Below, in pieces: positions 7,287 through 24,692 of a stretch of DNA of 64,000 nt. The stretch covers positions 20,184-84,183 of the forward strand of contig CAMEJH010000001.1 of NCBI GenBank assembly GCA_945919455.1, given 5' to 3'. Source of the stretch: an uncultured Clostridium sp. (GTDB taxonomy: Bacteria > Bacillota > Clostridia > TANB77 > CAG-508). Every line of letters begins with the position of its first letter. Position 1 is the first letter of the stretch. The position numbers and the translations under genes were made by a program. A model generated the notes under the pieces. That model had not been told where the DNA came from. It did not search any database and worked only from the letters and a program-made list of their open reading frames with translations.

Positions 7287-8387
7287 ATGAAGAAAATATT
7301 AATTACGGCAAATACGGACAGACATATTAAATTATGTCATCTTCCATATATACAATGGTTTAAGGAAAATGGATATGAAGTAGATATAGCAACAAATACG
7401 GATGAACCAATTTTAAATACTAACAAAATAAATTTAGGCTTAAAGAGAAATCCATTTAATTTTCAAAACGTTAAGGCAATTTTTAAATTAAAAAAAATTT
7501 TAGATATAGAAAATTATGAATTAATTCATACACATACACCTGTTGGAGCTGTAATTACAAGAATTGCATATAAACTATCAAGATCAAAGGCCAAATTAAT
7601 TTATACATGTCATGGTTTTCACTTTTATAAAAAAAGTCCTTTCTATTATTGGATTTTATTTTATCCAATCGAAAAATATTTGATGAAATATACAGATATT
7701 CTATTAGTTATGAATCAAGAAGATTATAATTTTGCTAAAAAACATTTTAAAAATGTTCAAGTTGAATTAGTTAATGGAGTTGGATTTAATAAACAAAGAT
7801 TTGATATAAAAAATTCAAAAAGAGACTTAGATGAAATTTATAATAAATATAATATTAATAGAAACTCTTTTATTGTTAGTTATGTTGCAGAATTTTCTAA
7901 AAGAAAACAGCAACTAAAGTTAATAAAAAACTTAAAAAATACAGATATAGGTAATACTAATATAAAAATACTATTAATAGGAGATGATATTTTAAAAGGT
8001 AAGGTTCAAAAAACAATAAAAAAATATAATTTAGAAAATAGTATAAAAACAATTGATTTTACAGAAGAAATTAATAAACTTTTAGACATATCAAATTTAG
8101 TAATTTCAGTAAGTAGACAGGAAGGATTACCTTTAAATATATTAGAAGCAATATATAAAAAAAAGATAATTATTGCCTCAAACTGTAGAGGAAACATTGA
8201 TTTAGTAAAAAATAACATAAATGGTTTTGTCATTCAAAAAATGGACGAACTTTATCCAAAAATTAAATTTGTAAAACAAAATTACTCAAGTATTCTAAAA
8301 AGATACAATCGAGGAATTGATATCTCAAAATATACATCTGATTATGTATTAAATCAGGTGGTAACAATTTATAAAAAAATATTATAG
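7287..8387 (+). CDS. Glycosyltransferase, GT4-like (GT-B fold)
   Basis: C-terminal motif SRQEGLPLNILEAIYKKKIIIASNCRGNIDLV (E-x7-E type). First gene of the long co-directional glycan locus. Confidence 0.75.
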   Translation: MKKILITANTDRHIKLCHLPYIQWFKENGYEVDIATNTDEPILNTNKINLGLKRNPFNFQNVKAIFKLKKILDIENYELIHTHTPVGAVITRIAYKLSRSKAKLIYTCHGFHFYKKSPFYYWILFYPIEKYLMKYTDILLVMNQEDYNFAKKHFKNVQVELVNGVGFNKQRFDIKNSKRDLDEIYNKYNINRNSFIVSYVAEFSKRKQQLKLIKNLKNTDIGNTNIKILLIGDDILKGKVQKTIKKYNLENSIKTIDFTEEINKLLDISNLVISVSRQEGLPLNILEAIYKKKIIIASNCRGNIDLVKNNINGFVIQKMDELYPKIKFVKQNYSSILKRYNRGIDISKYTSDYVLNQVVTIYKKIL

Positions 8388-8401
8388 AAAAGAAGGAAAA
8401 A

Positions 8402-9181
8402 ATGAAATATTCCGTAATAATGAATGTATATAATGAAGAAAGATATTTAGAATATGCACTGAAATCATTAAGATATTTAAAAAACTATGATGAATTGTTA
8501 ATTGCAGATATGGGAAGTACTGATAGGACTGTTGAAATTGCAAAAAAATATAATGCAAAAGTTATACAAATTCAGTATGATAAATATTTTGACAGAGGCC
8601 GACAAGTTATTATAGAAAAAGCTAAAAATGAATGGTGTTTTTTGCTAGATGCAGATGAAATGATTACAAAATCATTAGGACAAAAAATTGAAGACATAAT
8701 TGAAAAAGATGATTGTGATGCAGTGTATTTTCCTACAATAAATTATTTTTTTGGATTGAAATCAAAATATGGATTACACTATCCTTGTCATCATTGCAGA
8801 TTGTTTAAGAAAAGTGCAATAACGGTGACAGGAATACCACATAATTATCTTAATATAAATAAAGAATGCATAGAGAAATTTGTGTATGGAGAAGAAAATG
8901 CATTAATTCATTTCTCTTTCAATAATATAGAAGAATGGATGAAAAAAAGATATAGATATATTGAACTAGAAAATAATAACAATAAATTTAAAAATCCAAT
9001 TATTTGTGGGATAAAGAGCTTCTGCAGAGCATTTTTTAAAGAAAAAAATTATCAAGGTGGTTATGATGGCTTTATACTTTCAATTTTGTCTTCTGTAAGT
9101 GATCAACTTGCTAATATTAAATTATATTATGAAAATAAAAAGATAGATTCTAACAAAATAAGAGAAAAATATTTAGAATAG
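8402..9181 (+). CDS. Glycosyltransferase family 2 (GT-A)
   Basis: YSVIMNVYNEERYL..ADMGSTDRT and the DxD-type motif LLDADE. Confidence 0.7.
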   Translation: MKYSVIMNVYNEERYLEYALKSLRYLKNYDELLIADMGSTDRTVEIAKKYNAKVIQIQYDKYFDRGRQVIIEKAKNEWCFLLDADEMITKSLGQKIEDIIEKDDCDAVYFPTINYFFGLKSKYGLHYPCHHCRLFKKSAITVTGIPHNYLNINKECIEKFVYGEENALIHFSFNNIEEWMKKRYRYIELENNNNKFKNPIICGIKSFCRAFFKEKNYQGGYDGFILSILSSVSDQLANIKLYYENKKIDSNKIREKYLE

Positions 9182-9189
9182 GTAACAAT

Positions 9190-10254
9190 ATGAATAACAA
9201 AAAGAAAGTAATAATGTTTTGTGAATATTTTGGAAATGGTGGAATTGAAAAAATTTTATCTTATATTAATGAAAATTTAAATAAAGAAAAGTACAGCACT
9301 CAGATTATATGTACTATAAAGAATACACAAATATATGAAGAAGATATAAAAAGCATTTCTAAATTTAAAATTCGCAATCCAATTTATAGGTTTATTAAAA
9401 CAATATTGAATATAAAAAAAGTGACTGCAGATGCAGATATTGTACATTTTAATATACATAGTCCAATTGGTTTACTATATGCTTTTTTAATAAGAAATAC
9501 TAAAGCCAAAATAATCATTCATGCACATAACTCAAATTTTGATAATGATTTTCTTAAGATAAAAACTTTTATAGCTTTTATAATAAAAAAATTATTTCTT
9601 AGTTCTAAATATACATATATAGCATGCTCAGAAAGTGCAGCATTATTTTGCTTTAATAAAAAAACAAAATATACTATTTTGAAGAATGAGATTGATTGCG
9701 AAAAATTTATTTATGATGAGGGAAAGAGAAAAGAATTACGCAAAGAATATAAAATAGGTGCTAATGAAATAATTATAGGAAACATTGGAAGAATAGAGAA
9801 ACAAAAAAATCATGAGTTTTTAATAGAAGTATTTGATGCATTTTTAAAAAAACAAAGTAATGCTAAATTATTCTTAGTTGGAGCGGGAAAGCAAGAAAAA
9901 AAGATTAGAAATTTAATAAATAAAAAGGAAATAAATGATAAGGTAGTTATAATGAATTTCTATAGTGATATAAAAGATTTATATCAGATATTTGATTTTT
10001 ATCTAGTAACGTCTAGATATGAAGGATATGGAATGACTGTTTATGAGGCACTAAATTCATCATTACTTTGCTTTGTATCTGATAAAATTACACAAAATTT
10101 TTCTACCAATGAAAATATTATTCCAATATCATTAAACAAAACACCAGAAGAATGGGCAAGTAAAATTGAAGAATATATAGGATATAAAAGAGAAAAAAAG
10201 CTTAATCTAAGCTCAAATAATTATATTAAAGAATTAGAAAAAATATATAATTGA
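9190..10254 (+). CDS. Glycosyltransferase, GT4-like (GT-B fold)
   Basis: TSRYEGYGMTVYEALNSSLLCFVSD (E-x7-E) and the IGNIGRIEKQKNHEFLI linker. Confidence 0.75.
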   Translation: MNNKKKVIMFCEYFGNGGIEKILSYINENLNKEKYSTQIICTIKNTQIYEEDIKSISKFKIRNPIYRFIKTILNIKKVTADADIVHFNIHSPIGLLYAFLIRNTKAKIIIHAHNSNFDNDFLKIKTFIAFIIKKLFLSSKYTYIACSESAALFCFNKKTKYTILKNEIDCEKFIYDEGKRKELRKEYKIGANEIIIGNIGRIEKQKNHEFLIEVFDAFLKKQSNAKLFLVGAGKQEKKIRNLINKKEINDKVVIMNFYSDIKDLYQIFDFYLVTSRYEGYGMTVYEALNSSLLCFVSDKITQNFSTNENIIPISLNKTPEEWASKIEEYIGYKREKKLNLSSNNYIKELEKIYN

Positions 10255-10261
10255 GGTTTAT

Positions 10262-11228
10262 ATGAGTGAGGTTAGTATAATTGTACCAATTTATAATAGC
10301 GAAAAATATATTTCTGCATGTATAGAATCAATATTACATCAGACTTATAAAGATTTTGAACTATTATTAATAGATGATGGAAGTACTGATAATACAAATA
10401 ATATTATAAAAAAATATAAAGATTCAAGAATAAAAATATATAGGCAAGAGAATAAAGGAACTGGTGCTGCAAGAAATCTTGGAATGAAACATGCAAATGG
10501 TAATTATCTTACTTTTGTAGATAGTGATGATGCAATAGAACAAAGATATTTAGAAATTATGTTAAATGCATGTAAAAATAATAATGCAGATATTGTTTCA
10601 TGTGTATATATGAAAAATGATAAAGAACCAAAAATAAAAATACTAAATAAAACTGAGGCTTTTAGGTATTTAATTAGTTTACCAGAGAAGATACCAATGT
10701 CAGTGGTTCGGCAAAATATTTAAAAACAATATAATAAATGGTATTAGATTTGATGAAAATAATAGATTTGAGGATATTGAAGTAGCAACCAAAGTTTTTC
10801 TAAGTGCTAATAAAGTAATATATATAAATGAAGAATTGTATAAATGTTCTTATAGAAAAAATAGTAGATCAAATTTTTACGAGAGTGATGATAGAATAAG
10901 AGCATGCTACAAATCTTTAAAATTAATAACAAAACAATATGACCTTTTTCTAGATGATTATATTACATACACATTATTTAACTCTATTGCTATAGTTAAT
11001 ATGATGATTTTAAATGATAATTACAATATAAAACTTTTACAAAAAGTACAAAAAATAGTAAAAAAACATATAAAAAGTGTAAAAAAGTCACAATATGGGT
11101 TGTCAAAAAAAATGCAAATATATCTATTTTATTATAATTTTAGTTTATATAAAGTTTTATATAAAGCTTTAAAAATAAAAGGAGGTAAAAATATTGGACA
11201 AGATTTCAGTAATTGTACCAATATATAA
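10262..11228 (+). pseudogene. Frameshifted glycosyltransferase family 2 gene
   Basis: ORF 10262-10723 encodes a normal GT2 N-terminus (VSIIVPIYNSEKYI..LLIDDGSTDNT..FVDSDD) but stops at ..IPMSVVRQNI*. The +1 frame is open from ~10710 and continues in GT2 fashion (GKIFKNNIINGIRFDENNRFEDIEVATKVF..) to 11228. A single-nt indel near 10705-10710 would join them. Confidence 0.6.
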
Positions 11229-12138
11229 TTCAGAAAAATATTTGAGAGTATGTATAGAGTCAATAATTAATCAAACTTACACAAATTTTGAAGTTTTATT
11301 AATTAATGATGGAAGTACAGACAACTCATCAAATATTTGTAAAGATTTCTCTAATAGATATAGAAATGTAAAAACTTTTAATTTAACTCATCAAGGAGTT
11401 GCAAATGCAAGAAATTTTGGCATTAGTAAAGCTAGTGGCCAATACATATGCTTTATTGACTCTGATGACATGATATCTCCTAATTTTTTTAACGATCTTA
11501 TTAATATGATTACAATATATAACTCTGATATAGCAGAAACAGGATTTAGATATATGAACGAAAAACATAAGGAAAAGAAAAGAAAAATAGAGATATATGA
11601 TTCTATAAAAATGGCAAAGCGATTATATAGTAAAAATGGGGTAAGGACAGCAATTATAACAAATAAATTGTTTAACATAAAATTGTTTAAGAATATTAAA
11701 TTTGAAAACAGAGAAAATGAAGATGAATTTATAATACATAAATTGATATTTGCAACAAATAAACCAATTGTTATAGATAATCAAAAATTATATATCTATC
11801 GAATACATAAAAGTAGCAGGCAAACTAATTTTAATGCTGAAAAATTAAGAGTTCTAGAAGTTTTTGAACAAAGAGAAAAATATTTTTCAATAGATGAAGA
11901 ACTTATGATTAAAAATAAAATTGGTAAACTAGATTTAATTTTATACTTATCATATATTTGTAATCAAAATGGAAGAATAAAAGAACAAGAAGAATTGAAA
12001 AAACAGTTTACAAATGAATATAGGAATTTAAATATAAAACCGGACTTTAGGAGAAGAATAAAATATAAAATTTTTATGAAAAATCCACAATTAATTTTAA
12101 ATATTATAGCTTTAAGGAATAGGAAAAAATATGAATAA
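11194..12138 (+). CDS. Glycosyltransferase family 2
   Basis: TTG start 8 nt after GGAGG. ISVIVPIYNSEKYL..LLINDGSTDNS..FIDSDD. Paralog of the genes at 10262 and 12131. Confidence 0.75.
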   Translation: MDKISVIVPIYNSEKYLRVCIESIINQTYTNFEVLLINDGSTDNSSNICKDFSNRYRNVKTFNLTHQGVANARNFGISKASGQYICFIDSDDMISPNFFNDLINMITIYNSDIAETGFRYMNEKHKEKKRKIEIYDSIKMAKRLYSKNGVRTAIITNKLFNIKLFKNIKFENRENEDEFIIHKLIFATNKPIVIDNQKLYIYRIHKSSRQTNFNAEKLRVLEVFEQREKYFSIDEELMIKNKIGKLDLILYLSYICNQNGRIKEQEELKKQFTNEYRNLNIKPDFRRRIKYKIFMKNPQLILNIIALRNRKKYE

Positions 12139-13024
12139 CAAAAATATTTCTATAATTGTAACAGCATATAATTCGGAAAATTATATCGAGAGATGTATAA
12201 AAAGTTTAATTAACCAAACATATAAAAACATTGAAATAATAGTAGTTAACGATGGAAGTACAGACAAAACAATTGATATTTTAAACAAATATAAAAATAG
12301 TATTAAAATTTATGAAAAAGCTAATGAGGGAGTTGCAAATGCTCGTAATTTTGGCATAAAGAAATGTCAAACTGAATATTTTATGTTTGTTGATTCAGAT
12401 GATTATTTAGAAGAGAATGCTGTTAAAATATTATATACTAAATTAGTAGAAACTAATAGTGATATAGTAATGGGAAGTACCAATAATAGTTTAAAAGAAA
12501 TGCTAGTTCTAGAAGAAAATAAGTTTGATTATTTATTTAATAATAAAATAAAATATTTTATGGTACCATGGAATAAATTGTATAAAAAAGAGATATTTTC
12601 AGATTTAAAATATCCAAATTTAACACTAGCAGAAGATGAATATTTAATTCATCATATTTTAGATAAAATAATAAAAATGGTAATAATACCAGAAAAAACT
12701 TACAATTACTTTCATAATCCTGATGGTTTAACTACCACAAAACTACAAAATTATAAAGATATTATATGTGCATTTAAAGATAGATATAATTTCTTTAAAA
12801 ATACAAAATATGAAAAAATTGCTTATAAACAATATATGAATTATTATATAAATATTTTCTGCCAACTTAAAAGAAAAAATATTACACAAAAAGAACTTGT
12901 TTATGAATTTAGAAAAAACATAGTATTGCCAGTAAGCTTTAAATATTTGCTATTTGCAAATGCTGACGAAATATATTATAAATTATTTGCTTTGAGGAGT
13001 AAAATATGGAAAAAATACCAATAG
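12131..13024 (+). CDS. Glycosyltransferase family 2
   Basis: ISIIVTAYNSENYI..VVNDGSTDKT..FVDSDD. Confidence 0.75.
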   Translation: MNNKNISIIVTAYNSENYIERCIKSLINQTYKNIEIIVVNDGSTDKTIDILNKYKNSIKIYEKANEGVANARNFGIKKCQTEYFMFVDSDDYLEENAVKILYTKLVETNSDIVMGSTNNSLKEMLVLEENKFDYLFNNKIKYFMVPWNKLYKKEIFSDLKYPNLTLAEDEYLIHHILDKIIKMVIIPEKTYNYFHNPDGLTTTKLQNYKDIICAFKDRYNFFKNTKYEKIAYKQYMNYYINIFCQLKRKNITQKELVYEFRKNIVLPVSFKYLLFANADEIYYKLFALRSKIWKKYQ

Positions 13025-14028
13025 TATTTTCAACAAATGATAAATTTGCTGATTTATGTAGTGTAGCGATAAGCTCTATTATTCAAAATGGTAATATAAA
13101 TAATTTGTATGATATTTATATTTTTTATACAAGGCTTTCTAATGAAAATATAAAGAGATTAGAGCAAAATACTAAGCAAAATATAAGTATAAAATGCATA
13201 AATATATCAGAATTTATAGACTTTAAAAATTTATATGAGATAGAAAATTATACATATGAAATATATTATAGATATTATATTCCATTAATTTTAAAATATG
13301 AAAAAGTTATATATTTAGATTCTGACATAATAGTTGTAGATGATATAGCAAAACTATATAATGAAGATATTGGAGATGCACCAATCGGAGTAGTAAGAGA
13401 TTTTACACATTATATAGATCATTCAAATTTTGATTTTAATTCTGGAATAATGCTAATTAATACTAAAAAGTTCGAAGAACTAAAAATTAGAGATAAATGC
13501 ATTGAATTAATAAAAAAGAACAATTTTAGATTTCCAGATCAAAATGCGTTAAACATAGCATGTAAAGATAATGCGTATCTGTTAGATCCAAAATATAATT
13601 ACCAAGTAAGCTTAGCATATTATCATAGGTTTAAAAAAGAGATTAGAAAGAATAAATTTAAACAAAAATTTGAAGAAGAACCAATAATAATACATTTTTC
13701 ATATGTTACGAAACCAACTAATAATATATACTCTAAATATAATAAAGATTTTTGGAAATATGCTAAATATACTCCATATTATAATCAATTAGTTGATAAA
13801 TTTTTGGCAGATCCATATAAAGTGTTAAGGGAATCACCAATAGAAGACATATACATTGATATGGCGGAAGAAGGAAAAGTAGGATTAAGAAAAATATTTG
13901 AAACATTATTATACCAATTAAAATATTGGATTTTGTATAAAATAAGAAGAAAGGACAAATGTAAAAATGAAAAAGATAAAAGAATTACTAAAAAAAATAG
14001 TACCAGCGACTTATCAAAAAACAAATGA
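13006..14028 (+). CDS. Glycosyltransferase family 8 (LgtC/GspA-like, retaining)
   Basis: IPIVFSTNDKFADLCSVAISSII, YLDSDIIVVDDI (DxD) and FNSGIMLIN. Lys-rich C-terminal tail. Confidence 0.7.
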   Translation: MEKIPIVFSTNDKFADLCSVAISSIIQNGNINNLYDIYIFYTRLSNENIKRLEQNTKQNISIKCINISEFIDFKNLYEIENYTYEIYYRYYIPLILKYEKVIYLDSDIIVVDDIAKLYNEDIGDAPIGVVRDFTHYIDHSNFDFNSGIMLINTKKFEELKIRDKCIELIKKNNFRFPDQNALNIACKDNAYLLDPKYNYQVSLAYYHRFKKEIRKNKFKQKFEEEPIIIHFSYVTKPTNNIYSKYNKDFWKYAKYTPYYNQLVDKFLADPYKVLRESPIEDIYIDMAEEGKVGLRKIFETLLYQLKYWILYKIRRKDKCKNEKDKRITKKNSTSDLSKNK

Positions 14029-14869
14029 TTTATACAAACTTATGTTAAAAGAAATAATTGATATAAAGAGTAGAGGAACAGTAAAATCAATTTTAGATTA
14101 TGAAGTACAATTAGTGGAACATTGTAATTTAAATTGTAAAGGATGTTCACATTTTTCTCCATTATGCAAAGAAGAGTTTTTAGATGTAAATGAATATGAA
14201 AGAGATTGTAAAAGACTATCAGAACTTTTTGAAGGAGAAGCAAATTTTATCAGACTCATGGGAGGAGAACCTCTATTACATCCTAAAATAGCAGAGTTCC
14301 TAAAAATAACTAGAAATAATTTTCCAACAGCTACTATTGATTTGGATACAAATGGTATTTTAGTACTATCAATGAAAAAAAACTTCTGGAAAGAAATGCA
14401 CGACAACAATATAAATTTAACAATTACTAAATATCCAATAAAATTAGACTATGATAAAATAAAAGAAAAATGTAATAAAGAGAAAGTTAAATTTAGATTT
14501 TTTGACGAACAACCAGTTCGCCAATTTACACATTTGCCATTAGATTTAGAAGGAAGAGGACAAATAGAATGTAACTTTTTTAGTTGTTATTTGGCTAATT
14601 CGTGTCATACATTAAAACATGGAAAAATGTATACTTGTTCAACAGTACCACATGTAAATCATTTTAATGAATACTATAATTGTAATCTGAACATTAGCAA
14701 AAAAGATTCAATAGATATATATAAAGCTACTAGTGGAGATGAAATATTGGAATTTTTAGCAAAACCAATACCATTCTGCAGATATTGTAATGTAAATGCT
14801 AGAGAACACGGATTTGATTGGGAAATATCCAAAAAAGATATTTTAGAATGGTCATTAAGGAGTAAATAA
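13967..14869 (+). CDS. Radical SAM enzyme with C-terminal Cys cluster (SPASM/twitch-like)
   Basis: CNLNCKGCSHF (CxxxCxxC) and MGGEPLLHP. C-terminal cysteines CNFFSCYLANSC..C..FCRYCN. The start overlaps the GT8 gene by 62 nt; ATG 14042 is an alternative. Confidence 0.75.
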   Translation: MKKIKELLKKIVPATYQKTNDLYKLMLKEIIDIKSRGTVKSILDYEVQLVEHCNLNCKGCSHFSPLCKEEFLDVNEYERDCKRLSELFEGEANFIRLMGGEPLLHPKIAEFLKITRNNFPTATIDLDTNGILVLSMKKNFWKEMHDNNINLTITKYPIKLDYDKIKEKCNKEKVKFRFFDEQPVRQFTHLPLDLEGRGQIECNFFSCYLANSCHTLKHGKMYTCSTVPHVNHFNEYYNCNLNISKKDSIDIYKATSGDEILEFLAKPIPFCRYCNVNAREHGFDWEISKKDILEWSLRSK

Positions 14870-14871
14870 AC

Positions 14872-15720
14872 ATGAAATTGACTATTGGAATATGTACATA
14901 TAATAGAAAAAATATAATTGAGTATACATCAAAATCTTTAAAAGAAATTAATAATATAGAATGTGCAAATGTAAAAATATATGATGATAGTAGCGTAGAA
15001 TATGATATTAATTATTTAAAAAAATTATATCCAATGGCAAAAAAAATCAATAGAACGCAAGAAAATTTGGGAGCAGATTATAATACACAAAAAATGTATG
15101 AAGACTTTCTTAAAAGTGAAGATGAATATTTATTTAATGCTGATTCTGATTTGATTTTTAATAAAGATATTCTTACAATAATTGAAAAAAACATTAATAT
15201 TTTAAAGAAAGCAAATAAACCAGTTGTATTTTCAGTGTTTAATACATCAAAACATAAGACTATAAAAGATTTTGATGAAAATCTTTGTATAAAACATTCT
15301 GTTGGAGCAGCAGGAGTAGTATTTAGTAAAGAAGTAATAAAGATGTTTGTAAATAAAATTCCTCAAAAGTATAGTGTCCAAATACCATCAATAGACCATT
15401 GTTTTTGCGATATTTTGAGAAAAAATAAATATGATATATTTTGTACAAAAAAAAGCTATGTACAACATATTGGATTAATAGGACAAAATTCATCAGGAAT
15501 AAATGTTGACTGGGGAAAAGATTTTACAAGTGATACTTTGACTAATGCTAATGCAATAATAGAAGTGCTACAAGGATATTTAATAAATGATATTCCAGCC
15601 AATATATGTAATTTATGCGAACAAGGCAAAGTGGGAAGCAAAACAATAGTAAAAGCATTAGGCTTATGTGTAAAATTTAAAATAAAGAATTTTTGTGAAA
15701 AATTGAAAGGGAAAAAATGA
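14872..15720 (+). CDS. GT-A-fold glycosyltransferase-like protein (paralog A)
   Basis: LTIGICTYNRKNII..IYDDSS..NADSDL (DxD). Clearly paralogous along its length to 17377-18210 (shared CTKKSYVQHIG and NANAI blocks). Confidence 0.65.
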   Translation: MKLTIGICTYNRKNIIEYTSKSLKEINNIECANVKIYDDSSVEYDINYLKKLYPMAKKINRTQENLGADYNTQKMYEDFLKSEDEYLFNADSDLIFNKDILTIIEKNINILKKANKPVVFSVFNTSKHKTIKDFDENLCIKHSVGAAGVVFSKEVIKMFVNKIPQKYSVQIPSIDHCFCDILRKNKYDIFCTKKSYVQHIGLIGQNSSGINVDWGKDFTSDTLTNANAIIEVLQGYLINDIPANICNLCEQGKVGSKTIVKALGLCVKFKIKNFCEKLKGKK

Positions 15721-17372
15721 TTGTTGATTTTATAAAATTAATTGCAAAATATAAACCAATATTTAAAGAAAATAAAAAATATATAGTATTGCTTTTAATA
15801 TTAGCTGGTGTTACAGTAGGTATTTCAATATTGACTCCTGCATTAACTGCTAAGATTATTAGTTATATGGTACAAGGGAAATATACAGCTATTATAATAA
15901 TTCTTTTTTTACTAGGAATAGTACAAACTTTAAATTTAACTTCAAACATTTTAAATTCTAAGGTGTTTTTTAAATTTAGAAAAAATTTTATTTTTAGATT
16001 AAAAAAGCAATTATCAATAAGTATATTAAACTTGGACATGAATACTTTATCAGATAATAGAAAAGGAAAATTCATACAAAGGATAAATAATGACCCATCG
16101 ATAGTTGCTAGTTGTTTAGCAGACATAAAAAAGTACATAATTTTATTATTTACTAATGTTGGAGTAATAATATATACAGTATATTTAAGTCCGATACTAG
16201 GATTAATATATTTAATTTCATCTGTATTAATATTATATATAAGAGGAATAGGGGTAAAAAAGAAAAAAATAATACAAAATTCTTATTATAATGAGCAAGA
16301 TAAAAATACAAGTTTATGGAGTGAAATTTTTAATGGAATAAGAGATATAAAAACAGCAAATGCAAAAGAACAATTTGAAAATAAAACGGCTAAAGCGTTT
16401 GAAAATATAGAAGATTTACAATTTAAGGCTGATTTTTATTTTGATTTATGTGTAAAGGCAACAATTGTTATTGAATGGGTTGCAAATGCTTTAATAGTAT
16501 TAATGAGTGCATATCTTATGAGTAAAGGATATATTGTATTAGAAACTTTTTTAGTGGTATTTATGTATAGAAAAAATATATTTTCATTTTCAGATTGTTT
16601 TACAGATATGCTAGATAGAATGATAAATTTTAATTTATCTAGTGAAAGAATTTTTGAGGTAATTGATATCGCAAATATTCGATTTAATGGAGAAGAATCA
16701 ATAAAAGAATGTGATGGAAATATTGAATTTAAAAATGTATCATTTTCGTATAATGATAAATCTAATTTAATATTAGATAATTGTAATTTGAAAATAAAGA
16801 CTAATGAGAGTACAGCAATTATTGGAAGAAGCGGTGCGGGTAAAACAACAATACTAAATCTTATTTTAAAAATGTATAATGTTACTCAAGGTGAGATCTT
16901 ACTGGACGGAAAAAATATAAATGAAATAAGTGAACAATATATAAGAAAAAATATTTCAATAATTTCTCAAAACTATTATTTGTTTGATATGAGCATAAAA
17001 GAAAACTTAATGCTAGTAAAACCAGACCTTACAGAAAATGAAATGCAAGATGTTTGCCAAAAAGTAGGACTTGATGAATTTATTTTAAGTCTTCCTGATA
17101 AATATGATACCAATATTGGAGAAGGTGGATGCTTCTTAAGTGGAGGGCAGAGGCAAAGACTAGTAATAGCAAGAACTTTATTATTGAATACAAAGATTAT
17201 TTTATTTGATGAAGTAACAAGTTATTTGGATAACGAGTCAAAGCAAGCAGTAAAACAATTAATAGATACTTTAAAGAATAATCATACAGTTGTTTTAGTA
17301 ACACATGAAGATTTTTTAAGAGAAAATTGTGATCAAAAATATTATTTAAAAGATGGAAAAGTGGAGAGATAA
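15717..17372 (+). CDS. ABC exporter, fused TMD-NBD half-transporter (MsbA/PglK-type architecture)
   Basis: Hydrophobic N-terminal half. Walker A GRSGAGKTT, signature LSGGQRQRLVIAR, Walker B IILFDE. ATGA overlap with the upstream gene. No C39 peptidase domain. Confidence 0.85.
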   Translation: MIVDFIKLIAKYKPIFKENKKYIVLLLILAGVTVGISILTPALTAKIISYMVQGKYTAIIIILFLLGIVQTLNLTSNILNSKVFFKFRKNFIFRLKKQLSISILNLDMNTLSDNRKGKFIQRINNDPSIVASCLADIKKYIILLFTNVGVIIYTVYLSPILGLIYLISSVLILYIRGIGVKKKKIIQNSYYNEQDKNTSLWSEIFNGIRDIKTANAKEQFENKTAKAFENIEDLQFKADFYFDLCVKATIVIEWVANALIVLMSAYLMSKGYIVLETFLVVFMYRKNIFSFSDCFTDMLDRMINFNLSSERIFEVIDIANIRFNGEESIKECDGNIEFKNVSFSYNDKSNLILDNCNLKIKTNESTAIIGRSGAGKTTILNLILKMYNVTQGEILLDGKNINEISEQYIRKNISIISQNYYLFDMSIKENLMLVKPDLTENEMQDVCQKVGLDEFILSLPDKYDTNIGEGGCFLSGGQRQRLVIARTLLLNTKIILFDEVTSYLDNESKQAVKQLIDTLKNNHTVVLVTHEDFLRENCDQKYYLKDGKVER

Positions 17373-17376
17373 AATA

Positions 17377-18210
17377 ATGAAATTATATATTGGAGTAACT
17401 ACATATAATAGAAAAGATATTATACAATATAATGCAAAATCTTTATTACAGGTGGATGAAATCGAAAACTGTGAAATACATGTGTTTGATGATTGCAGTA
17501 ATGAGTATAATATGAAATTTTTAAAAAAAATTTATAAAACTGATAAAGTTATTTGTAACAAGGAAAACTTAGGGGCAGATGCTAATGCCAAGAAAATGTT
17601 TATGGACTTTTTAAAAAGTGATTGTGATTATTTATTTTGTGCAGACTCTGATTTGATTTATACTAAAGATGTTTTAAGAGTAATAGAAAAAAGTATATAC
17701 AAAATAAAAAAAGCAAATAAACCAGTTATATTTTCGGTTTTTAGTGAGAAGCATCATACTATATTTGAAGAATTTGATTCAGACCTTTGCAAAAAGAAAT
17801 TTATTGGAGGTGCTGGAACGGTAATGGATAAAGAAATTATAAAGCTGTTTATAGAAAATGTTCCTTTAAAGTATAATAAGGAAATAGAAGGAATAGACTG
17901 TTATTATTGTAGTGTTTTGAATTCTTTAAATTATGATATGTTTTGTACAAAAAAGAGCTATGTTCAACATATTGGGGTTTTTGGACAAGGAGCAAACTTA
18001 GTAGATATTGAATGGGGAATTGATTTTAAAATAGATAGTATAGTAAATGCAAATGCTATTTATTATATTTGTGAAAAATATTATAAAATTGATGAAGAGA
18101 AAATTAAAAGTATGGCATTAAATCTTGCTAAAGTAGATAAGATAGGAGTTAGATTATCAATAAAAATGTTATATTATTCAATAATTTCAAGATTCAAAAG
18201 AAAAAATTGA
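17377..18210 (+). CDS. GT-A-fold glycosyltransferase-like protein (paralog B)
   Basis: ATG 17377 lies 8 nt after GGAGAG; the track's upstream extension overlaps the ABC gene. LYIGVTTYNRKDII..VFDDCS..CADSDL. Confidence 0.65.
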   Translation: MKLYIGVTTYNRKDIIQYNAKSLLQVDEIENCEIHVFDDCSNEYNMKFLKKIYKTDKVICNKENLGADANAKKMFMDFLKSDCDYLFCADSDLIYTKDVLRVIEKSIYKIKKANKPVIFSVFSEKHHTIFEEFDSDLCKKKFIGGAGTVMDKEIIKLFIENVPLKYNKEIEGIDCYYCSVLNSLNYDMFCTKKSYVQHIGVFGQGANLVDIEWGIDFKIDSIVNANAIYYICEKYYKIDEEKIKSMALNLAKVDKIGVRLSIKMLYYSIISRFKRKN

Positions 18211-18245
18211 AAGAAATTTATTTTTGCTAAAATCTTTATAAAGTA

Positions 18246-18274
18246 TTGTAAAAAGTAAAAATATGTGGTATATA
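18246..18274 (+). promoter_or_regulatory. Candidate promoter for the prepilin-like gene
   Basis: TTGTAA (18246-18251), 17 nt spacer, TATATA (18269-18274), with a TG extended -10 (tgtggTATATA). Confidence 0.4.
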
Positions 18275-18310
18275 ATATATATAAAATTCAAAAGAAGAAA
18301 GGGGAAAAAT

Positions 18311-19777
18311 ATGAAAGATAAAAGAAGTGTTAATGTAAGAGGTATAACACTAATTGCATTAGTTGTAACAATTGTAGTATTGCTAATTTTAGCTGCAACT
18401 TCTATAAGTATGTTATCGGGAAACAATGGAATAATAACACAGGCTAAGAATGCTAAAGAAAAAACCGAAGAAGAAGGTGAAAATGAACAAAATCTTTTAG
18501 ACAAGACTGGAAATAGTATAGATAATTATGTTTCTGGTGCTTATGATGGGTGGAATTCTGCAAAAGGAGTAAATCAGCCTAGTCTGTCTTCAAGAATGGT
18601 TGCAGTATACTGGACTGAAGATGGAGAGGAAATTTATTCAAAAATTGCTGAGGATGGAAATCCAGATCCTTCAGGAGAAGTAAATCCAAATTTCGACTGG
18701 AATTTATGGTATGATTATGTTGCGCAAACAGGTACAACAGATGGAACTAGTAAATGGGCTAATGCAATATCACTTGATGGCAATGGAACTTGTTATTGTG
18801 TTTGGATTCCAAGATTTGCATATAAAATAACAAGTGGATTAAATTCAAGTAGCACAGGAAAAGTAGAAATTAAGTTCTTAAAAGGAACTTCAAATGAAGA
18901 TAAAGATGGAAATAAAATAAGTAAAGAGTACCCAGCAACAAATGGTAATGCAATGAGTGATTTTGTAATACATCCATCATTTGTAAATGGAACTGCAAAT
19001 AATTTTTCTAATGGTGAATGGGATTCTGAAATTGGAGGATATTGGGTTGCTAAGTATAAGATGACAACAGATATACAAGGAGAAGATATTTTTCAAGGAA
19101 GTATACCAGGGGAGAACAGAAGGATAAATTATATGGAATATCAATATGCATTAGCTAATTATTATAATAAATCATGTAATAGTCATTTGATAAAAAATAG
19201 TGAATGGGGAGCTATTGCATACTTAACTCAATCTAATTATGGAAGAAATGGAAATAAAGTAAGTGCAAACAATACTTATTATAGTGGAGGTTCCCGAAAT
19301 GCAACTGCAACTACTAATGTCTCTCAAAGTAGTACAGGCAATCCATATGGTATATTTGATTTAGTTGGCGGAGGAGAGTTTGTGGCTGGATATGCTGGAT
19401 TTTTAAATAGAATGACATCAGGACTTGATTTTGCTTATGCTGAATTGCCTAAAATAACTACAGGAACATATTTTAGGTGGAGAGATGATGTATTAAGAAA
19501 TAAGATGGTGAATACAAAATTTATAACTGTATATCCTTGTGACAGAACGAATACTGAAACTGTATATAATTATAATATTTATGCAAATACAAAGATGTTT
19601 GGAGATGCTATATTAGAAACAACAACGGTTAATAACAGTGATTTAAATTCTTGGGAGAATATATCAAATATATATTTTGATTTTAAAAAATGTTATATGA
19701 TTAGAGGAGAAAATGGTATATTTTCTTATGAGGCTATTACTAATGGAGGATATGGCTATCGTATAGTACTTATGTAA
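18311..19777 (+). CDS. Prepilin-type (class III signal) protein with large FGE-sulfatase/C-type-lectin-like C-terminal domain
   Basis: ATG 18311 follows AAAGGGGA. MKDKRSVNVRG-ITLIALVVTIVVLLILAATSI gives a short basic leader, then Gly, then a ~20-residue hydrophobic helix, with Ala rather than Glu at +5. Downstream motifs are FVIHPSF, GYWVAKYKMT, NSEWGAIAYL and NPYGIFDLVGGGEFVAG. Confidence 0.65.
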   Translation: MKDKRSVNVRGITLIALVVTIVVLLILAATSISMLSGNNGIITQAKNAKEKTEEEGENEQNLLDKTGNSIDNYVSGAYDGWNSAKGVNQPSLSSRMVAVYWTEDGEEIYSKIAEDGNPDPSGEVNPNFDWNLWYDYVAQTGTTDGTSKWANAISLDGNGTCYCVWIPRFAYKITSGLNSSSTGKVEIKFLKGTSNEDKDGNKISKEYPATNGNAMSDFVIHPSFVNGTANNFSNGEWDSEIGGYWVAKYKMTTDIQGEDIFQGSIPGENRRINYMEYQYALANYYNKSCNSHLIKNSEWGAIAYLTQSNYGRNGNKVSANNTYYSGGSRNATATTNVSQSSTGNPYGIFDLVGGGEFVAGYAGFLNRMTSGLDFAYAELPKITTGTYFRWRDDVLRNKMVNTKFITVYPCDRTNTETVYNYNIYANTKMFGDAILETTTVNNSDLNSWENISNIYFDFKKCYMIRGENGIFSYEAITNGGYGYRIVLM

Positions 19778-19800
19778 AATTAAATAATATTAATAACACT

Positions 19801-19835
19801 AAGAGACATAATTGCTAAAAGCAAATATGTCTCTT
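19801..19835 (+). terminator. Intercistronic hairpin (possible attenuator/partial terminator)
   Basis: aagagacata, 15 nt, tatgtctctt: perfect 10-bp stem with only a weak T tract after it. Confidence 0.4.
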
Positions 19836-19862
19836 TACTATAAAAATGGATGGACTAAAATT

Positions 19863-21269
19863 ATGAAAGAAAAAATAAAAAATTCAATTAATAATATAAC
19901 GGACATTATATTGTGTAGAGCATCAAAAGAAACGTTTTATAAATATGAAAAACAATTATTATTTTTATCGTTATTTATATTAATGTTTTATTATATGGTA
20001 ATATTTAGATTTAATGATTTAGGATTAGTTGCTACATTTTCTTGGCTATTATATCCATTTTTTATAGCGCTATATATACCATTAATTCATAGTGCATTTT
20101 ACCATATAAAAAATAAAGAATTTAAAATAAAATTAATAGACATAGCATTTGTAATTTATATAATATTTTGTATAATTGCAACAATATTTTCAGAAACACC
20201 ATACAATTCAATATTTGGAAATGGAATTAGAAATGAAGGTATATTCACAATTATATTTTATTTCTTAGTATATTTGTTAGGAAGAAACATTGTAAACAAA
20301 GATAACATACTAGAATTAATAAACTTTATTTTTATTTTTGGAATAGTACAGGTGATTGCTGGATTATTTCAATCATATTATACATGGAATTCTTATTTTG
20401 ATGAAATGGCCTATGGATATGCAAGTAATCCAAATATGTTTGGATTATTGATGGGAATGCTACTTACAATAGCAGTTGGATTATATTTTAATGAAAATGA
20501 ACATATTAACAAATATAAATATTTTTATCTAGTTTGTATTATATTATTTTATACTGGTTTAGTATTAGCAGAATCAGCTGGACCATTCTTTTCATTTATA
20601 GGAATGCTAGGAATAATGTTTATTTACTATATAATAAAAAAGGTAAAAGTAAAGAAAATGCTATTAATTTTGCTAATTTTTATAGTACTATTTCCAATAA
20701 TCCAATTTACCAATAGGGCTGCTAATGAATACTATTTAAGAGATGCCGAATATAAGACATATATAACAAACAACAACACAGATTATTCAAAATTATATAC
20801 AGATGTTATTACTATAATAAATAAAATAATTCCAAAGAAAAATACAGAAACAGAAGAAAATACTAGTAATACTCAAAACGATGATACAAAAAGAACAATA
20901 GATAATGGAAGAATTGCTGAATGGAAGCTTGTTATAAAAGAAGTAAAGAAAAATTGGAAAAATGGAGTAGGATTAGATTGCTTAAATATTTATTATAATG
21001 GAAGAGGATATTGGGAGATTCTAGATAAAGCACATAACCAATATTTAGATATACTAGTTAGTATAGGAGTGTTTGGATGTATTACATATTTAACAATGAT
21101 GATAATTGTAACATTAAAAGGTATAAAAAATAAAAATGCCATATCAAAAACAATATTTTTTGGCTTTTTATATTATTCAATTGCAATATTTGTTAACATA
21201 AGTACACCATTTGTAGCAATATATTATTATATAATAGTGGGATTAATAATTGGTCTTTGTGAAAAATGA
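19863..21269 (+). CDS. O-antigen ligase family (Wzy_C domain) polytopic membrane protein
   Basis: Many hydrophobic helices. Extracytoplasmic loop motif NGRIAEWKLV..NGVGLD..DKAHNQYLDILVSIGVFG, typical of the WaaL/PglL/PilO/Wzy family. The track start 19812 lies inside the upstream hairpin, so ATG 19863 is preferred. Confidence 0.7.
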   Translation: MKEKIKNSINNITDIILCRASKETFYKYEKQLLFLSLFILMFYYMVIFRFNDLGLVATFSWLLYPFFIALYIPLIHSAFYHIKNKEFKIKLIDIAFVIYIIFCIIATIFSETPYNSIFGNGIRNEGIFTIIFYFLVYLLGRNIVNKDNILELINFIFIFGIVQVIAGLFQSYYTWNSYFDEMAYGYASNPNMFGLLMGMLLTIAVGLYFNENEHINKYKYFYLVCIILFYTGLVLAESAGPFFSFIGMLGIMFIYYIIKKVKVKKMLLILLIFIVLFPIIQFTNRAANEYYLRDAEYKTYITNNNTDYSKLYTDVITIINKIIPKKNTETEENTSNTQNDDTKRTIDNGRIAEWKLVIKEVKKNWKNGVGLDCLNIYYNGRGYWEILDKAHNQYLDILVSIGVFGCITYLTMMIIVTLKGIKNKNAISKTIFFGFLYYSIAIFVNISTPFVAIYYYIIVGLIIGLCEK

Positions 21270-21283
21270 AAATAAATTCAAAA

Positions 21284-21312
21284 AAATAGCAAGTAAAGCC
21301 TTGCTATTTTTT
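21284..21312 (+). terminator. Rho-independent terminator after the Wzy_C gene
   Basis: aaatagcaag-taaagc-cttgctattt followed by TTT. Confidence 0.7.
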
Positions 21313-21363: not shown

Positions 21364-23670
21364 TTGAAAAAGGAAAATAAGGAACTAGAACTATCAAAAA
21401 AATTGGAATATATAGGATTAAATTTAGATGAAATACCAGAAACACTAAAATTAGTAGAAGACTTACAATTTAAGCCAAATGTAGGACTTGATGAAAAAAA
21501 ATACAGACAATATAGATTTGTGTCTCCTAAAGAAATAGAAATATTATTATCACCAACAAATAGATTAGATGATGTAAAAGAAAAATACTCAAAAGCAAGC
21601 CCATTAGTATCTTATTTAATCCCAAACAATGAGGAAAATGCTGAAAGATGTGAAATATTTAAAAATATGCTAAGAGAAGTTAAAATTGAAGAAATTGAAA
21701 AAATAGAGCAAGATCAACAGGCATTGAATAAAAAGATTCCATTTAAAGTAAGATATCCAGGAAACTATTTATGGCAGATATATTATTCTTCAGCAAGTAA
21801 CAAATATTTTATGATTGTACCAACTGAAGATAAAGATTACTCAACATTTTTTTATGTTCTAAAGAAACAAATAGAAAAGAAAAAAGCAGGAAAAGTATTT
21901 GTACCAATATGTAATGCAGACTATTCAAAAGAATTATTGAATAAAACAGAAATACAAAGCTTAGAGAACTATTTATGGCTATTTACAAAAGATTGGCCTT
22001 CAATATATGAAGTATATGATAAAAATGAAAAAGTAAGCTTACAAATAGTTGGAACAACAGAAGTATATGGAAAAATAAAATCAGAGTATAAAGTAAAACT
22101 TTCAAACAAAATTGAAGCAACAAAATTTTTTAAATTAGTAAAAGCACTATTTATATTGCAATCAGAATTACCAAATTATTATAAATTTGATACACAAATA
22201 GATAAACAAGGAAGTCTAGAATTCTACTATGAAGGACAATTGCTACAATATGATGATTTAAGTGATTGGGTAAATGATCAATACAAAAAATTATTAGAAA
22301 TTCAAAAAAAATCTACAAAAGAAAATTCAGAATTAAAAGAAAAATTAAATAAATTGAAAAATCAATCAGAAGAATTAGAAATGGAATATTTGTCTAAAGA
22401 AAAACAAATATCAACATTTTTAGAATGCAAAAAAACCTTTTTTGGCAAAGTAAAATACTTTTTCAAATATAGTGGAAAAAAATCAAAAAGAAAAGAAGAA
22501 AAGCCAAAAGAAGTTAAGCAAGAAAAAGTTAAAATTGAAAAAGAAGAAGAAATAGACGAAACATTAAAAAAACAATACACCTTAGATGAATTACTAGAAA
22601 AAGGGAAAAAAGCTAGTGAAAAAGAAACAGAATTAAAAAACACTAAAATGGATATAAATGCTTTAAAATTAAAAAATGTAAATCTAGTAAAGAAAATAGA
22701 AAATGCAACAGCATTTATAGATGAGATAGATAGTCATAAAAAGAGCATATTTGAATTCTGGAAATATAGTAATAAAGATGAAGTACAAGCTCTAGAAGAA
22801 GGCGAAGAAGAACCTGTAAATGTAAAGCCACATTCAAAAGTATTTGACTATGAAGAAGATTTTGACGAATTTGGAACAACAATGGACAAAATACAAAGAG
22901 ATATTTTGTCAAAAGAAGAATTAGATAGCATATACTTAACAACAACAAATCAAATAGAAATAATGAATAAATTAAAAACAAATACCACAGAGCCAAAAGA
23001 ATTAGACAAATGGCTAAAACAAATAAAAACAGATCTAAAAAATGAAAAAGACATGACAGAAGAAGAGGTTGTAGATATATTCGGAGGACTATCAGAAGAT
23101 ACTAGAAAAGTAAAAAAATTGGCTAATAAATCTCACAGAGAACAACCAAAAAATAAATATTCAATATTAAAAATATCAAAGTCTATAAAAACAGTAGATT
23201 ATAAAGTTGCGCTGAACAATGCTATAAGAACTATAGATAAAGCAATAAACAAAAATCAATTAGGACAGGAAATTTCAGCATATGAATGGACTGAGGAGGA
23301 AAATATAGATCCTAATAAGATTAATATATTTAATCTAGATCCTGAAAAGGAAATAGAAGAAGCATTAAAAGCAACAGAGAATACAAAAATTAATTTATAT
23401 AAAATGAATTTAAATAAAGGAATTAATGCAATAGCATTTTCAAATTGTGTTTATTTTGATAATCAGAACAAAACATTGCCTTTAGGAATGGATAAAGATA
23501 CTAGAATATTAACAAAAATATTAGATACAGATATACAACTAAATAGTAAAAAAACTGTAAGAGTTGGAAGATTAGAAGATGAAAAAGACGAGGCTTCTAA
23601 ATTGATTATAAAAACAATAAATATATTAGAATATACTGTAAAACCAATAGAAGAGAATACAGAAAAATAA
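21364..23670 (+). CDS. Large orphan cytoplasmic protein with central Lys/Glu-rich coiled-coil region (~769 aa)
   Basis: TTG 21364 lies 6 nt after GGGAGAG. The ORF-track extension back to 21250 runs through the upstream terminator. No TM or signal peptide. The central part (..ELKEKLNKLKNQSEELEMEYLSKEKQ..KRKEEKPKEVKQEKVKIEKEEE..) looks coiled-coil. No family recognised. Its stop is 11 nt before era. Confidence 0.6.
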   Translation: MKKENKELELSKKLEYIGLNLDEIPETLKLVEDLQFKPNVGLDEKKYRQYRFVSPKEIEILLSPTNRLDDVKEKYSKASPLVSYLIPNNEENAERCEIFKNMLREVKIEEIEKIEQDQQALNKKIPFKVRYPGNYLWQIYYSSASNKYFMIVPTEDKDYSTFFYVLKKQIEKKKAGKVFVPICNADYSKELLNKTEIQSLENYLWLFTKDWPSIYEVYDKNEKVSLQIVGTTEVYGKIKSEYKVKLSNKIEATKFFKLVKALFILQSELPNYYKFDTQIDKQGSLEFYYEGQLLQYDDLSDWVNDQYKKLLEIQKKSTKENSELKEKLNKLKNQSEELEMEYLSKEKQISTFLECKKTFFGKVKYFFKYSGKKSKRKEEKPKEVKQEKVKIEKEEEIDETLKKQYTLDELLEKGKKASEKETELKNTKMDINALKLKNVNLVKKIENATAFIDEIDSHKKSIFEFWKYSNKDEVQALEEGEEEPVNVKPHSKVFDYEEDFDEFGTTMDKIQRDILSKEELDSIYLTTTNQIEIMNKLKTNTTEPKELDKWLKQIKTDLKNEKDMTEEEVVDIFGGLSEDTRKVKKLANKSHREQPKNKYSILKISKSIKTVDYKVALNNAIRTIDKAINKNQLGQEISAYEWTEEENIDPNKINIFNLDPEKEIEEALKATENTKINLYKMNLNKGINAIAFSNCVYFDNQNKTLPLGMDKDTRILTKILDTDIQLNSKKTVRVGRLEDEKDEASKLIIKTINILEYTVKPIEENTEK

Positions 23671-24597: not shown

Positions 24598-24692
24598 AAA
24601 AATTTTAAAATATAACTATTTCGTAGCCGAAACATATCTAGGGTCTTCGCGTAGGTCTCGGCTTTACTCAATAGTGATATTTGAAAATTTTT
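24598..24692 (+). repeat. Structured palindromic intergenic element, copy A (divergent)
   Basis: The outer arms aaaaattttaaaatataactatt / aatagtgatatttgaaaattttt pair at 21 of 23 positions. The core reads ..gtagccgaaacatatctagggtcttcgcgtaggtctcggctttac... Starts 13 nt after the era stop. Confidence 0.85.

Follow-up and report, generated by a model that had tools for sequence, protein, structure and literature searches.

In Gram-negative bacteria, the gene of an O-oligosaccharyltransferase (O-OTase) often adjoins that of its pilin substrate (PMC3643930). In pairs such as PilA/TfpO(PilO), PilE/PglL and ComP/PglS-PglL, the gene of a Wzy_C-domain enzyme comes right after a gene that encodes a pilin-type leader, both on the same strand and with a glycan pathway nearby. 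The same outward arrangement is seen in a stretch of 64,000 nucleotides from an uncultured Clostridium sp. (contig CAMEJH010000001.1, positions 20,184 to 84,183; the whole stretch is hereafter referred to as the window), in which gene 1, encoding a lectin-like protein with a pilin-type leader, is followed by gene 2, encoding a Wzy_C enzyme. The first-pass annotation had regarded the two genes as a self-contained glycosylation unit of a pilin and its O-OTase, and had remarked that no Wzy_C-type protein O-glycosylation system was characterised in the Firmicutes. The remark was inaccurate, as O-OTases with a Wzy_C domain are predicted in S-layer glycosylation clusters of this phylum, namely WsaB (Geobacillus stearothermophilus) and WsfB (Paenibacillus alvei) (PMC2943079); since these have already been described, the unit in the window would not have been the first in the Firmicutes.

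Two other groups of proteins bear comparison with gene 1. The variable proteins of diversity-generating retroelements (DGRs), such as TaqVP (5vf4), the lipoprotein TvpA of Treponema denticola and Mtd of Bordetella phage BPP-1, have in common with gene 1 a C-terminal ligand-binding fold. Targets with a C-type-lectin fold of the formylglycine-generating enzyme (FGE) type form the largest class of DGR targets (PMC5758913), and most cellular DGR targets carry an N-terminal transmembrane segment or signal (PMC8144416). In the modular pilins PilB and PilC (lectin module) of Streptococcus sanguinis, a class III-type leader is joined to a large grafted binding module, and a module of the lectin type would be displayed on a type IV filament (PMC8179133, PMC9934059).

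Comparison of the window with these systems leads us to favour, with moderate confidence, the reading that two functionally separate things lie side by side, a conserved glycan module and an orphan pilin-like lectin that interrupts it. Homology, fold, synteny and the DGR status of relatives are established by the data, and the processing and the display of the gene 1 product and the acceptor of the gene 2 enzyme are inferred.

Gene 2, its conserved module and the proposed pairing with gene 1

Gene 2 matches the Pfam Wzy_C family with 52.7 bits against a cut-off of 31.7 (E-value 5.4e-14), and its AlphaFold2 (AF2) model (pLDDT 81) was matched by Foldseek only to the O-antigen ligase WaaL of Cupriavidus metallidurans (7tpg; E-value 5.8e-5, probability 1.0, TM score 0.48-0.54), in line with the Wzy_C assignment made at first. 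The His and Asn of the WaaL loop motif H[NSQ]x9Gxx[GTY] and an upstream Arg are conserved, H391 and N392 of the motif H-N-x9-G-x-x-G being invariant and R350 being at least 90% conserved. The sequence identity between gene 2 and WaaL is 12%, and the Gram-positive host differs in being without a lipid A-core acceptor. The gene 2 family profile matched WaaL (7tpg, E-value 3.6e-7) and the oligosaccharyltransferase 9rmk (E-value 1.1e-6) about equally, and gene 2 scored 20.7 bits with the polymerase model TIGR04370 (cut-off 40). PglL_A (PF15864) had no match in gene 2 at E<=0.01, a result that is only weakly discriminating because PilO is also without this motif, and ligases and O-OTases are not separable by sequence comparison alone (PMC3643930). 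The close relatives of gene 2 are few (16 matches). It could encode a ligase or an O-OTase, also one acting on a substrate other than the gene 1 product.

Pfam annotation of 50 of the 52 open reading frames (ORFs) of at least 150 residues placed two large glycan loci in the window (7287-21269 and about 25684-52772), separated by an orphan gene for a 768-residue protein, era and recO. Genes 1 and 2 thus lie in a glycan locus, as originally proposed, and the ABC (ATP-binding cassette) exporter described upstream of them is indeed flanked by two glycosyltransferase genes. The context of gene 2 was compared in every locus of a non-conspecific ortholog for which context was available, namely five loci with 53-64% identity to gene 2. 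The closest of these, L092 (64%), has the order rSAM-GT2-ABC-Wzy_C (rSAM, radical SAM), where the ABC gene overlaps Wzy_C by 8 nt; L007 (55%) has GT2-GT2-GT8-rSAM-GT2-ABC-Wzy_C, which is the order of the window minus the second glycosyltransferase gene, GT2_b, and gene 1; L010 and L011 (61%) have ABC-Wzy_C, and L005 (53%) has GT8-rSAM-Wzy_C-GT2-GT4-GT4. A conserved rSAM-GT2-ABC-Wzy_C module ends with gene 2. A 476-residue ORF upstream of Wzy_C in L010, considered as a possible gene 1 homolog, was rejected as it is the ABC transporter.

GT2_b is missing from all the five orthologous loci. Its identity is 47% to GT2_a, the other glycosyltransferase beside the ABC gene, and 43-45% to the GT2 proteins of L007 and L092; a recent tandem duplication of GT2_a was therefore rejected, 47% identity being that of an old paralog. 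Since the orthologous loci are without GT2_b and gene 1, and since the GC content of gene 1 is higher (31.3%) than that of the flanking genes (22.6-23.5%), the simplest history is that both were inserted between the ABC and the Wzy_C genes in this lineage, and gene 1 with the extra GT2 is most likely a lineage-specific insertion.

The ABC half-transporter has MsbA and similar families as its best NCBIfam matches, with PglK at 154 bits, all of them far below the cut-off. Because the constant partner of gene 2 is an MsbA/PglK-type ABC exporter and not a Wzx flippase, and because ABC-dependent S-layer glycosylation clusters with WsaB and WsfB provide a precedent (PMC2943079), a transferase or ligase acting on the completed, flipped glycan appears more likely than a Wzy polymerase by the logic of the pathway. 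In those clusters, likewise from Firmicutes, an ABC transporter exports the completed lipid-linked glycan, which the Wzy_C enzyme is predicted to transfer (PMC2943079). The window differs from them in that its ABC protein is a half-transporter and not of the Wzm/Wzt type, no TPR motif was found, and the window contains no recognised S-layer gene.

The pairing of genes 1 and 2 was examined from both sides. No gene 1 homolog lies beside the Wzy_C gene in the five orthologous loci (L092, L010, L011, L007, L005), where Wzy_C directly follows the ABC or the rSAM gene. A scan of GTDB with one genome per species returned 80 gene-1-family loci, the window's own species not being among them, and no gene-2-like Wzy_C was found beside the gene-1-family genes in these loci by BLASTP. 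A purpose-built Wzy_C profile, which gave 85 matches in 80 Wzy_C loci as a positive control, gave a single marginal match in the 80 gene-1-family loci (L074; E-value 4e-4, 16 bits), and the gene-1-family loci L001, L003 and L004 also have no Wzy_C neighbour. The pairing was seen only in the species cluster of the window, where it is kept in the strain cluster L174 (93% identity). Non-conservation of the adjacency, found here in five Wzy_C orthologs and, one marginal profile match apart, in 83 gene-1-family loci, had been named in the first-pass annotation as a result that would refute a dedicated glycosylation unit; the glycosylation pairing is therefore not supported.

The pair differs from PilA/TfpO, PilE/PglL and ComP/PglS in further respects as well. 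The conserved partners of gene 2 are the rSAM, GT2 and ABC genes, PglL_A is undetected, and gene 1 encodes a 488-residue lectin without Glu5. Inspection of gene 1 for acceptor features revealed none, as its C-terminus (...GYRIVLM) carries no Ser/Thr of the TfpO/TfpM type and there is no Ala/Pro/Ser-rich low-complexity segment.

Pilin and Wzy_C genes are adjacent elsewhere among the relatives of gene 2. P0161, the closest outgroup of gene 2, is encoded on an AT-rich, Bacilli-like contig (L009:9548-13642) in the order canonical 124-residue pilin, Wzy_C, LepA and second pilin; this pair lies outside any glycan locus and near era and recO, as in the window. A metagenome scan with the gene 2 family alignment returned only distant relatives (at most 29% identity) and added no orthologous contexts, and it exposed further pilin-Wzy_C pairs. 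The Wzy_C gene of L105 (3009-13030) is situated between two pilin genes in a complete PilB-PilT-PilC-pilin-Wzy_C-pilin-PilD-PilM/N/O operon, and the adjacency is also found in L107, L110, L112, L121, L122, L123, L098 and L152, all distant relatives of gene 2. Such pairs indicate that Wzy_C enzymes of this broad group can be pilin-associated. The pilins of these genuine pairs are small (112-134 residues) and canonical, with Glu5, unlike gene 1, and as candidates for TfpO-like pilin glycosylation the pairs of the L105 type surpass the pair in the window.

The pilin-type leader and the lectin body of gene 1

The N-terminus of gene 1, MKDKRSVNVRG↓ITLIALVVTIVVLLILAATSISML, has a short hydrophilic leader ending in Gly with about 21 hydrophobic residues next, and was assessed by the features of class III signals given by Berry and Pelicic (PMC4471445). 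According to this review, Gly-1 is critical for the processing of prepilins and Glu5 is dispensable, and Glu5-less subunits cannot homopolymerise but can enter filaments beside wild-type subunits (PMC4471445). The 48 relatives compared, at about 40% overall identity, all have Gly-1; G11, T13, L14, L17, T20 and L25-L27 show no variation among them, and a conserved LTGxNGIxTQAxxAK segment trails the hydrophobic stretch. Position +5 is Ala16 in gene 1, and among the 48 relatives it is Ala (42), Thr (four), Gly (one) or Ser (one) and never Glu; the class III-type leader with Ala in place of Glu, recognised at first in gene 1, is thus Glu5-less throughout the family. Gene 1 scores 12.9 bits with Pfam N_methyl, below the cut-off of 21.2; the model is matched at E<0.1 by 32 of the 48 relatives, and other proteins bearing this leader reach 21.2-21.4 bits.

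A search with the first 60 residues of gene 1 (18311-18490) against 1.84 billion representative proteins retrieved 371 protein clusters at E<=1e-10 and 17,634 at E<=0.001, the latter possibly with ordinary pilins among them; the matched proteins are 57-2331 residues long. The leader-bearing proteins sampled (P0166-P0315) carry passengers of the BspA-type leucine-rich repeat (LRR; LRR_5), RCC1 or GLUG families, or no known domain, and the leaders of unrelated passengers are 60-84% identical. Occurrence of the same leader on LRR, RCC1 and GLUG proteins makes it a generic module that is not peculiar to gene 1. Two leader modules are present in P0167 (706 residues) and 17 matched stretches in P0166 (2331 residues), and 12 of the 80 GTDB loci contain 15 leader-only genes that cluster with genes of the lectin family. 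A literature search with the leader motif strings found no paper.

Some of the leader-bearing genes are associated with type IV pilus (T4P) genes. A complete T4P operon in a metagenome-assembled genome (MAG) of an uncultured Clostridium (L063:529-11530) comprises PilM/N-like and PilO-like genes, a 140-residue pilin with a Glu5-less GITLISLVITIIVLLILAG leader (N_methyl, 21.4 bits), PilD (A24_N_bact), two minor-pilin-like ORFs, PilB and PilT (T2SSE) and PilC (T2SSF), and it ends, directly after PilC, with a 520-residue lectin protein of the gene 1 family. A 190-residue leader protein is encoded immediately upstream of a PilD fragment in L047, and in L037 and L038 the gene-1-family gene is followed, at a distance of about 0.7 kb, by a Peptidase_A24 gene. 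From its sequence, the gene 1 leader is best read as a lineage-specific class III signal, and by analogy gene 1 would best be regarded as a modular pilin-like lectin comparable to the S. sanguinis modular pilins, for which the presence of a relative in the T4P operon of L063 provides a parallel. The two differ in that Glu5 is always replaced in the gene 1 family, the gene 1 model has no pilin globular module, the gene in the window is far from pilus genes, and the filament display proposed for gene 1 comes from sequence analysis.

The AF2 model of gene 1 (pLDDT 79, pTM 0.79) has a transmembrane helix (residues 10-36), a charged helix of low confidence (41-75) and a well-predicted body (80-488). 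The sole significant Foldseek match of the model in the PDB was TaqVP of the Thermus aquaticus DGR (5vf4; E-value 1.4e-5, probability 1.0), with formylglycine-generating enzyme far behind, and phmmer against the PDB matched gene 1 to 5vf4 at the NSEWG and GIxDLxG motifs. Gene 1 itself has no FGE-sulfatase match and no other Pfam match above threshold; FGE-sulfatase is matched at E<0.1 by seven of the 48 relatives, and with the TaqVP match this bears out the C-type-lectin/FGE-like body seen at first. Scans of gene 1 with NCBIfam and PHROGs yielded nothing useful. More than 5,600 homologs were found, all without a name or a Pfam domain. The 80 GTDB loci are all from uncultured gut Clostridia MAGs, several genomes having 3-6 copies, and contain 89 lectin-body ORFs, whose typical neighbours are housekeeping genes or DGR cassettes. 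A divergent HTH_3-type regulator is encoded immediately upstream of the gene-1-family gene in two unrelated loci (L003:9347-9682 and L004:9463-9810), and genes resembling these regulators are present in three of the 80 GTDB loci.

Among the neighbours in the 80 loci, only a DGR reverse transcriptase (RT) and Avd are both recurrent and specific, occurring in 10 loci. In L004, the gene 1 homolog P0007 (36% identity over 99% of the query) lies beside RVT_1 and bAvd genes, and its last 164 nt are repeated 300 nt downstream with 88% identity, 18 of the 20 mismatches being at adenines of the downstream copy; an adenine-biased repeat beside RT and Avd is the signature of a DGR, the repeats corresponding to the variable region (VR) and the template repeat (TR). 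In the GTDB loci, TRs were found 110-270 nt downstream of eight further gene-1-family ORFs, with 78-100% of the mismatches at TR adenines. Gene 1 thus belongs to a family of C-type-lectin variable proteins of which about a tenth are local DGR targets, and it has in common with described DGR variable proteins the motifs ..NSEWG.., ..G.DL.G...E.. and a terminal GFR.VL. The N-terminus differs, being a pilin-type leader in gene 1 whereas LdtA is a lipoprotein (PMC5758913). The copy in the window differs from its close relatives that are bona fide targets, as the 64 kb contain no TR copy of the gene 1 3' end, the Pfam scan of 50 window ORFs of at least 150 residues gave no RVT_1 match, the window is also without Avd, and the segment equivalent to the VR is about 10 residues shorter than in the DGR-targeted relatives. 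Seven full-length variants from other samples (93-98% identical) show no VR hypervariability, their C-termini being nearly invariant with only K/E and Y/H changes. The window copy of gene 1 is fixed and not hypermutated. Nearly all the conspecific differences, a 4-residue indel included, are located at 19061-19180 (residues about 251-290), just before the NSEWG helix, which suggests a recombined or selected surface loop. The gene 1 family combines a pilin-type leader with a DGR-type lectin fold, as is evident from homology and from the predicted fold.

The favoured explanation and its alternatives

In the favoured explanation, of a conserved glycan module interrupted by an orphan lectin, the glycosyltransferases of the gene 2 module would build a lipid-linked glycan, the MsbA/PglK-type ABC half-transporter would flip it, and the WaaL-fold Wzy_C enzyme would transfer it at the outer face to an acceptor. 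The candidate acceptors are an anchor in the wall or of lipid, a chain still being extended, and proteins, for instance one of the S-layer. Gene 1 and the extra GT2 paralog would have entered between the ABC and the Wzy_C genes in this lineage. The gene 1 protein would consist of a Glu5-less type-IV-pilin-type leader, a charged helical stalk and an extracellular C-type-lectin-fold domain for ligand binding. It is predicted to be inserted N-in/C-out, and an A24 prepilin peptidase whose gene lies elsewhere probably cleaves it after Gly11; its lectin domain may then be exposed for adhesion or binding, either at the cell surface or on a type IV filament.

Several observations weigh against this explanation. 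Few of the 80 gene-1-family loci show a direct association with T4P genes, and the 64-kb window has no prepilin peptidase or pilus gene by the Pfam scan or by tblastn with PilB, PilT, PilC, PilD and PilM, the lack of a prepilin peptidase, an assembly ATPase and a platform gene having been recorded from the outset. The AF2 model is without a pilin globular domain and its stalk is of low confidence. The gene 2 relative P0161 (42% identity) and several distant relatives directly adjoin canonical pilins, and at least two strain clusters of the species have kept genes 1 and 2 adjacent, so that a recruited function in this lineage is possible. The high GC content of gene 1 could reflect its amino-acid composition rather than a foreign origin, and a donor of more than about 44% identity was not found.

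The proposal that genes 1 and 2 form a dedicated pair, in which the Wzy_C enzyme moves an undecaprenyl-linked glycan flipped by the ABC transporter to Ser/Thr of the gene 1 protein, agrees with the ties of the pilin-type leader to T4P operons in relatives, with the place of gene 2 in the WaaL/PglL superfamily and the match of its profile to 9rmk about as well as to WaaL, with the arrangement usual in Gram-negative bacteria, with the persistence of the adjacency in two strain clusters and with the pilin-Wzy_C pairs of L009, L105, L107, L110, L121 and L122. It is nevertheless improbable, given that the adjacency is missing in the orthologous Wzy_C loci and, but for the marginal L074 match, in the gene-1-family loci, that the genuine paired pilins are of another kind, that PglL_A and acceptor features are not detected, and that a stable hairpin separates the two genes. 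Recruitment of gene 1 as an unglycosylated lectin for the glycan of its own locus, by which it would bind, organise or sense the exported polymer, accords with its insertion inside the operon together with GT2_b and with the retention of the arrangement in the two strain clusters; the gene 1 family elsewhere shows no preference for glycan loci, the arrangement amounts to a single evolutionary event and the ligand is purely conjectural, and we hold this to be unlikely.

A plain N-in/C-out signal-anchor, with no link to a prepilin peptidase or a filament, would make gene 1 a membrane-tethered lectin. The window is devoid of T4P machinery and most family loci are without pilus genes, Glu5 is absent and the N_methyl score of gene 1 is below threshold, and an N-terminal transmembrane segment is common on cellular DGR targets (PMC8144416). 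The leader is, on the other hand, conserved beyond the need of a passive anchor, with its eight invariant positions and its close similarity across unrelated passengers; it keeps the exact K/R-G↓[IV]-T-L register of class III signals, and it also heads the small pilin next to PilD in a complete T4P operon, which leaves little likelihood to the signal-anchor. The least probable of the alternatives, to which we give hardly any weight, is that gene 1 is still hypermutated as the remote target of a DGR elsewhere in the genome. Remote targets are known, for example in Treponema (PMC5758913), about 10% of the gene 1 family are local DGR targets, and the search for TR and RT covered the 64-kb window only; the near identity of the C-termini in the seven strain variants, with the variable patch elsewhere (251-290), the shortened VR-equivalent region and the lack of a TR in the 64 kb speak against it.

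Other features of the window and biological significance

The features of the locus are listed in the table. Many homologs were found for both genes 1 and 2, which are therefore real, and the ORF coordinates and motifs first reported for them agree with the sequence, NSEWGAIAYL being residues 296-305 and NPYGIFDLVGGGEFVAG residues 344-360 of gene 1. The transcription signals proposed at first stood up unequally. The intercistronic hairpin is real by its fold energy, none of 200 shuffles being equally stable, and is a candidate partial terminator or RNA-stabilising element; the terminator is present as described and could act on either strand because its A-run and T-run are symmetrical. The hexamers of the promoter-like sequence are there, but the site is not listed by a consensus promoter scan and is indistinguishable from background (37 promoter-like sites observed in the region against 32.6 expected from shuffles), promoter prediction being uninformative at 25% GC.

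Table. Positions in the window of genes 1 and 2, their signals and the genes of the upstream module
Feature	Position	Strand	Description
Radical-SAM gene	13967-14869	+	Pfam Radical_SAM; 75-78% identity to rSAM of L007, L092 and L005, same order; first gene of the module
GT2_a	14872-15720	+	Pfam Glycos_transf_2; 68% identity to GT2 of L007 and L092; module ortholog
ABC half-transporter	15717-17372	+	Transmembrane and nucleotide-binding domains (TMD-NBD), MsbA/PglK-type; Pfam ABC_membrane and ABC_tran; presumed lipid-linked glycan flippase
GT2_b	17377-18210	+	ATG at 17377, upstream ATG at 17353 possible; lineage-specific extra glycosyltransferase paralog
Promoter-like sequence	18246-18276	+	TTGTAA at 18246, TATAAT at 18271, spacer 19 nt; putative
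Gene 1	18311-19777	+	488 aa; starts MKDKRSVNVRG↓ITLIALVVTIVVLLILAA
Gene 1 leader	18311-18418	+	MKDKRSVNVRG, then 25 hydrophobic residues; class-III (prepilin)-type; Gly-1, Ala+5
Intercistronic hairpin	19801-19835	+	RNA fold -17.6 kcal/mol, z = -5.9; no T-run
Gene 2	19863-21269	+	468 aa; WaaL-fold Wzy_C enzyme; includes AHNQYLDILVSIGVFG
Intrinsic-terminator-like hairpin	21281-21312	+	Operon end; 13-bp stem, then T-run; fold -14.6 kcal/mol, z = -3.5

Other observations were made in the window. A 153-residue ORF (10262-10723) in the glycan locus aligns with only the N-terminal part of a GT2 domain, and a gap of 470 nt separates its end from the next GT2 gene; it is possibly a truncated glycosyltransferase pseudogene. 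The 768-residue Lys/Glu-rich protein encoded directly downstream of the terminator (21364-23670) is conserved, between Wzy_C and era, within the species cluster and has no match in Pfam, NCBIfam or PHROGs. An intergenic repeat of about 82 nt, with the core CATAGCTAGGGTCTTCCTATGGGTCTTGAC, is present in five copies that are 65-80% identical (24600-24681, 45697-45778, 45783-45864, 60030-60111 and 61108-61189); it matches no Rfam family, and the Rfam scan of the window gave only a tRNA. Four tandem repeats of 231 nt (77 residues) occur in each of two adjacent genes, at 53074-54066 in a GH25 muramidase (52956-54812) and at 54918-55910 in an M14 peptidase (54821-57361); these are probably cell-wall-binding repeats and have no Pfam match at 1e-5.

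The fusion of a Glu5-less pilin-type leader to a DGR-type lectin fold, together with the sharing of the leader by thousands of predicted surface proteins and a T4P pilin, is moderately new, and no description of it was found in the DGR surveys consulted. As a tentative proposal, less probable than the explanation favoured above for the locus, uncultured gut Clostridia may possess an unrecognised pathway that displays proteins on type IV filaments and sorts them by the Glu5-less leader K/R-G↓ITLIALVxTIxVLLILAG..LTGxNGIxTQAxxAK; in this pathway an A24 peptidase and a T4P machine would process modular C-type-lectin, BspA-LRR, RCC1 and GLUG proteins that share the leader of the 140-residue pilin, some of the lectins being hypermutated by DGRs and gene 1 being one fixed member. 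That gene 1 would, in addition, be a substrate of the neighbouring Wzy_C enzyme in this species is improbable.

The rSAM-GT2-ABC-Wzy_C module is a clean candidate for learning the role of a WaaL-like enzyme in the Gram-positive envelope. The display pathway, if true, would have as its counterparts outside type IV filaments the archaeal bindosome and, among type V pili, the DGR-diversified adhesins of Bacteroides. Should the leader route proteins to a type IV filament, it would provide abundant uncultured gut bacteria with a large repertoire of adhesins and would link DGR hypermutation to type IV pili.

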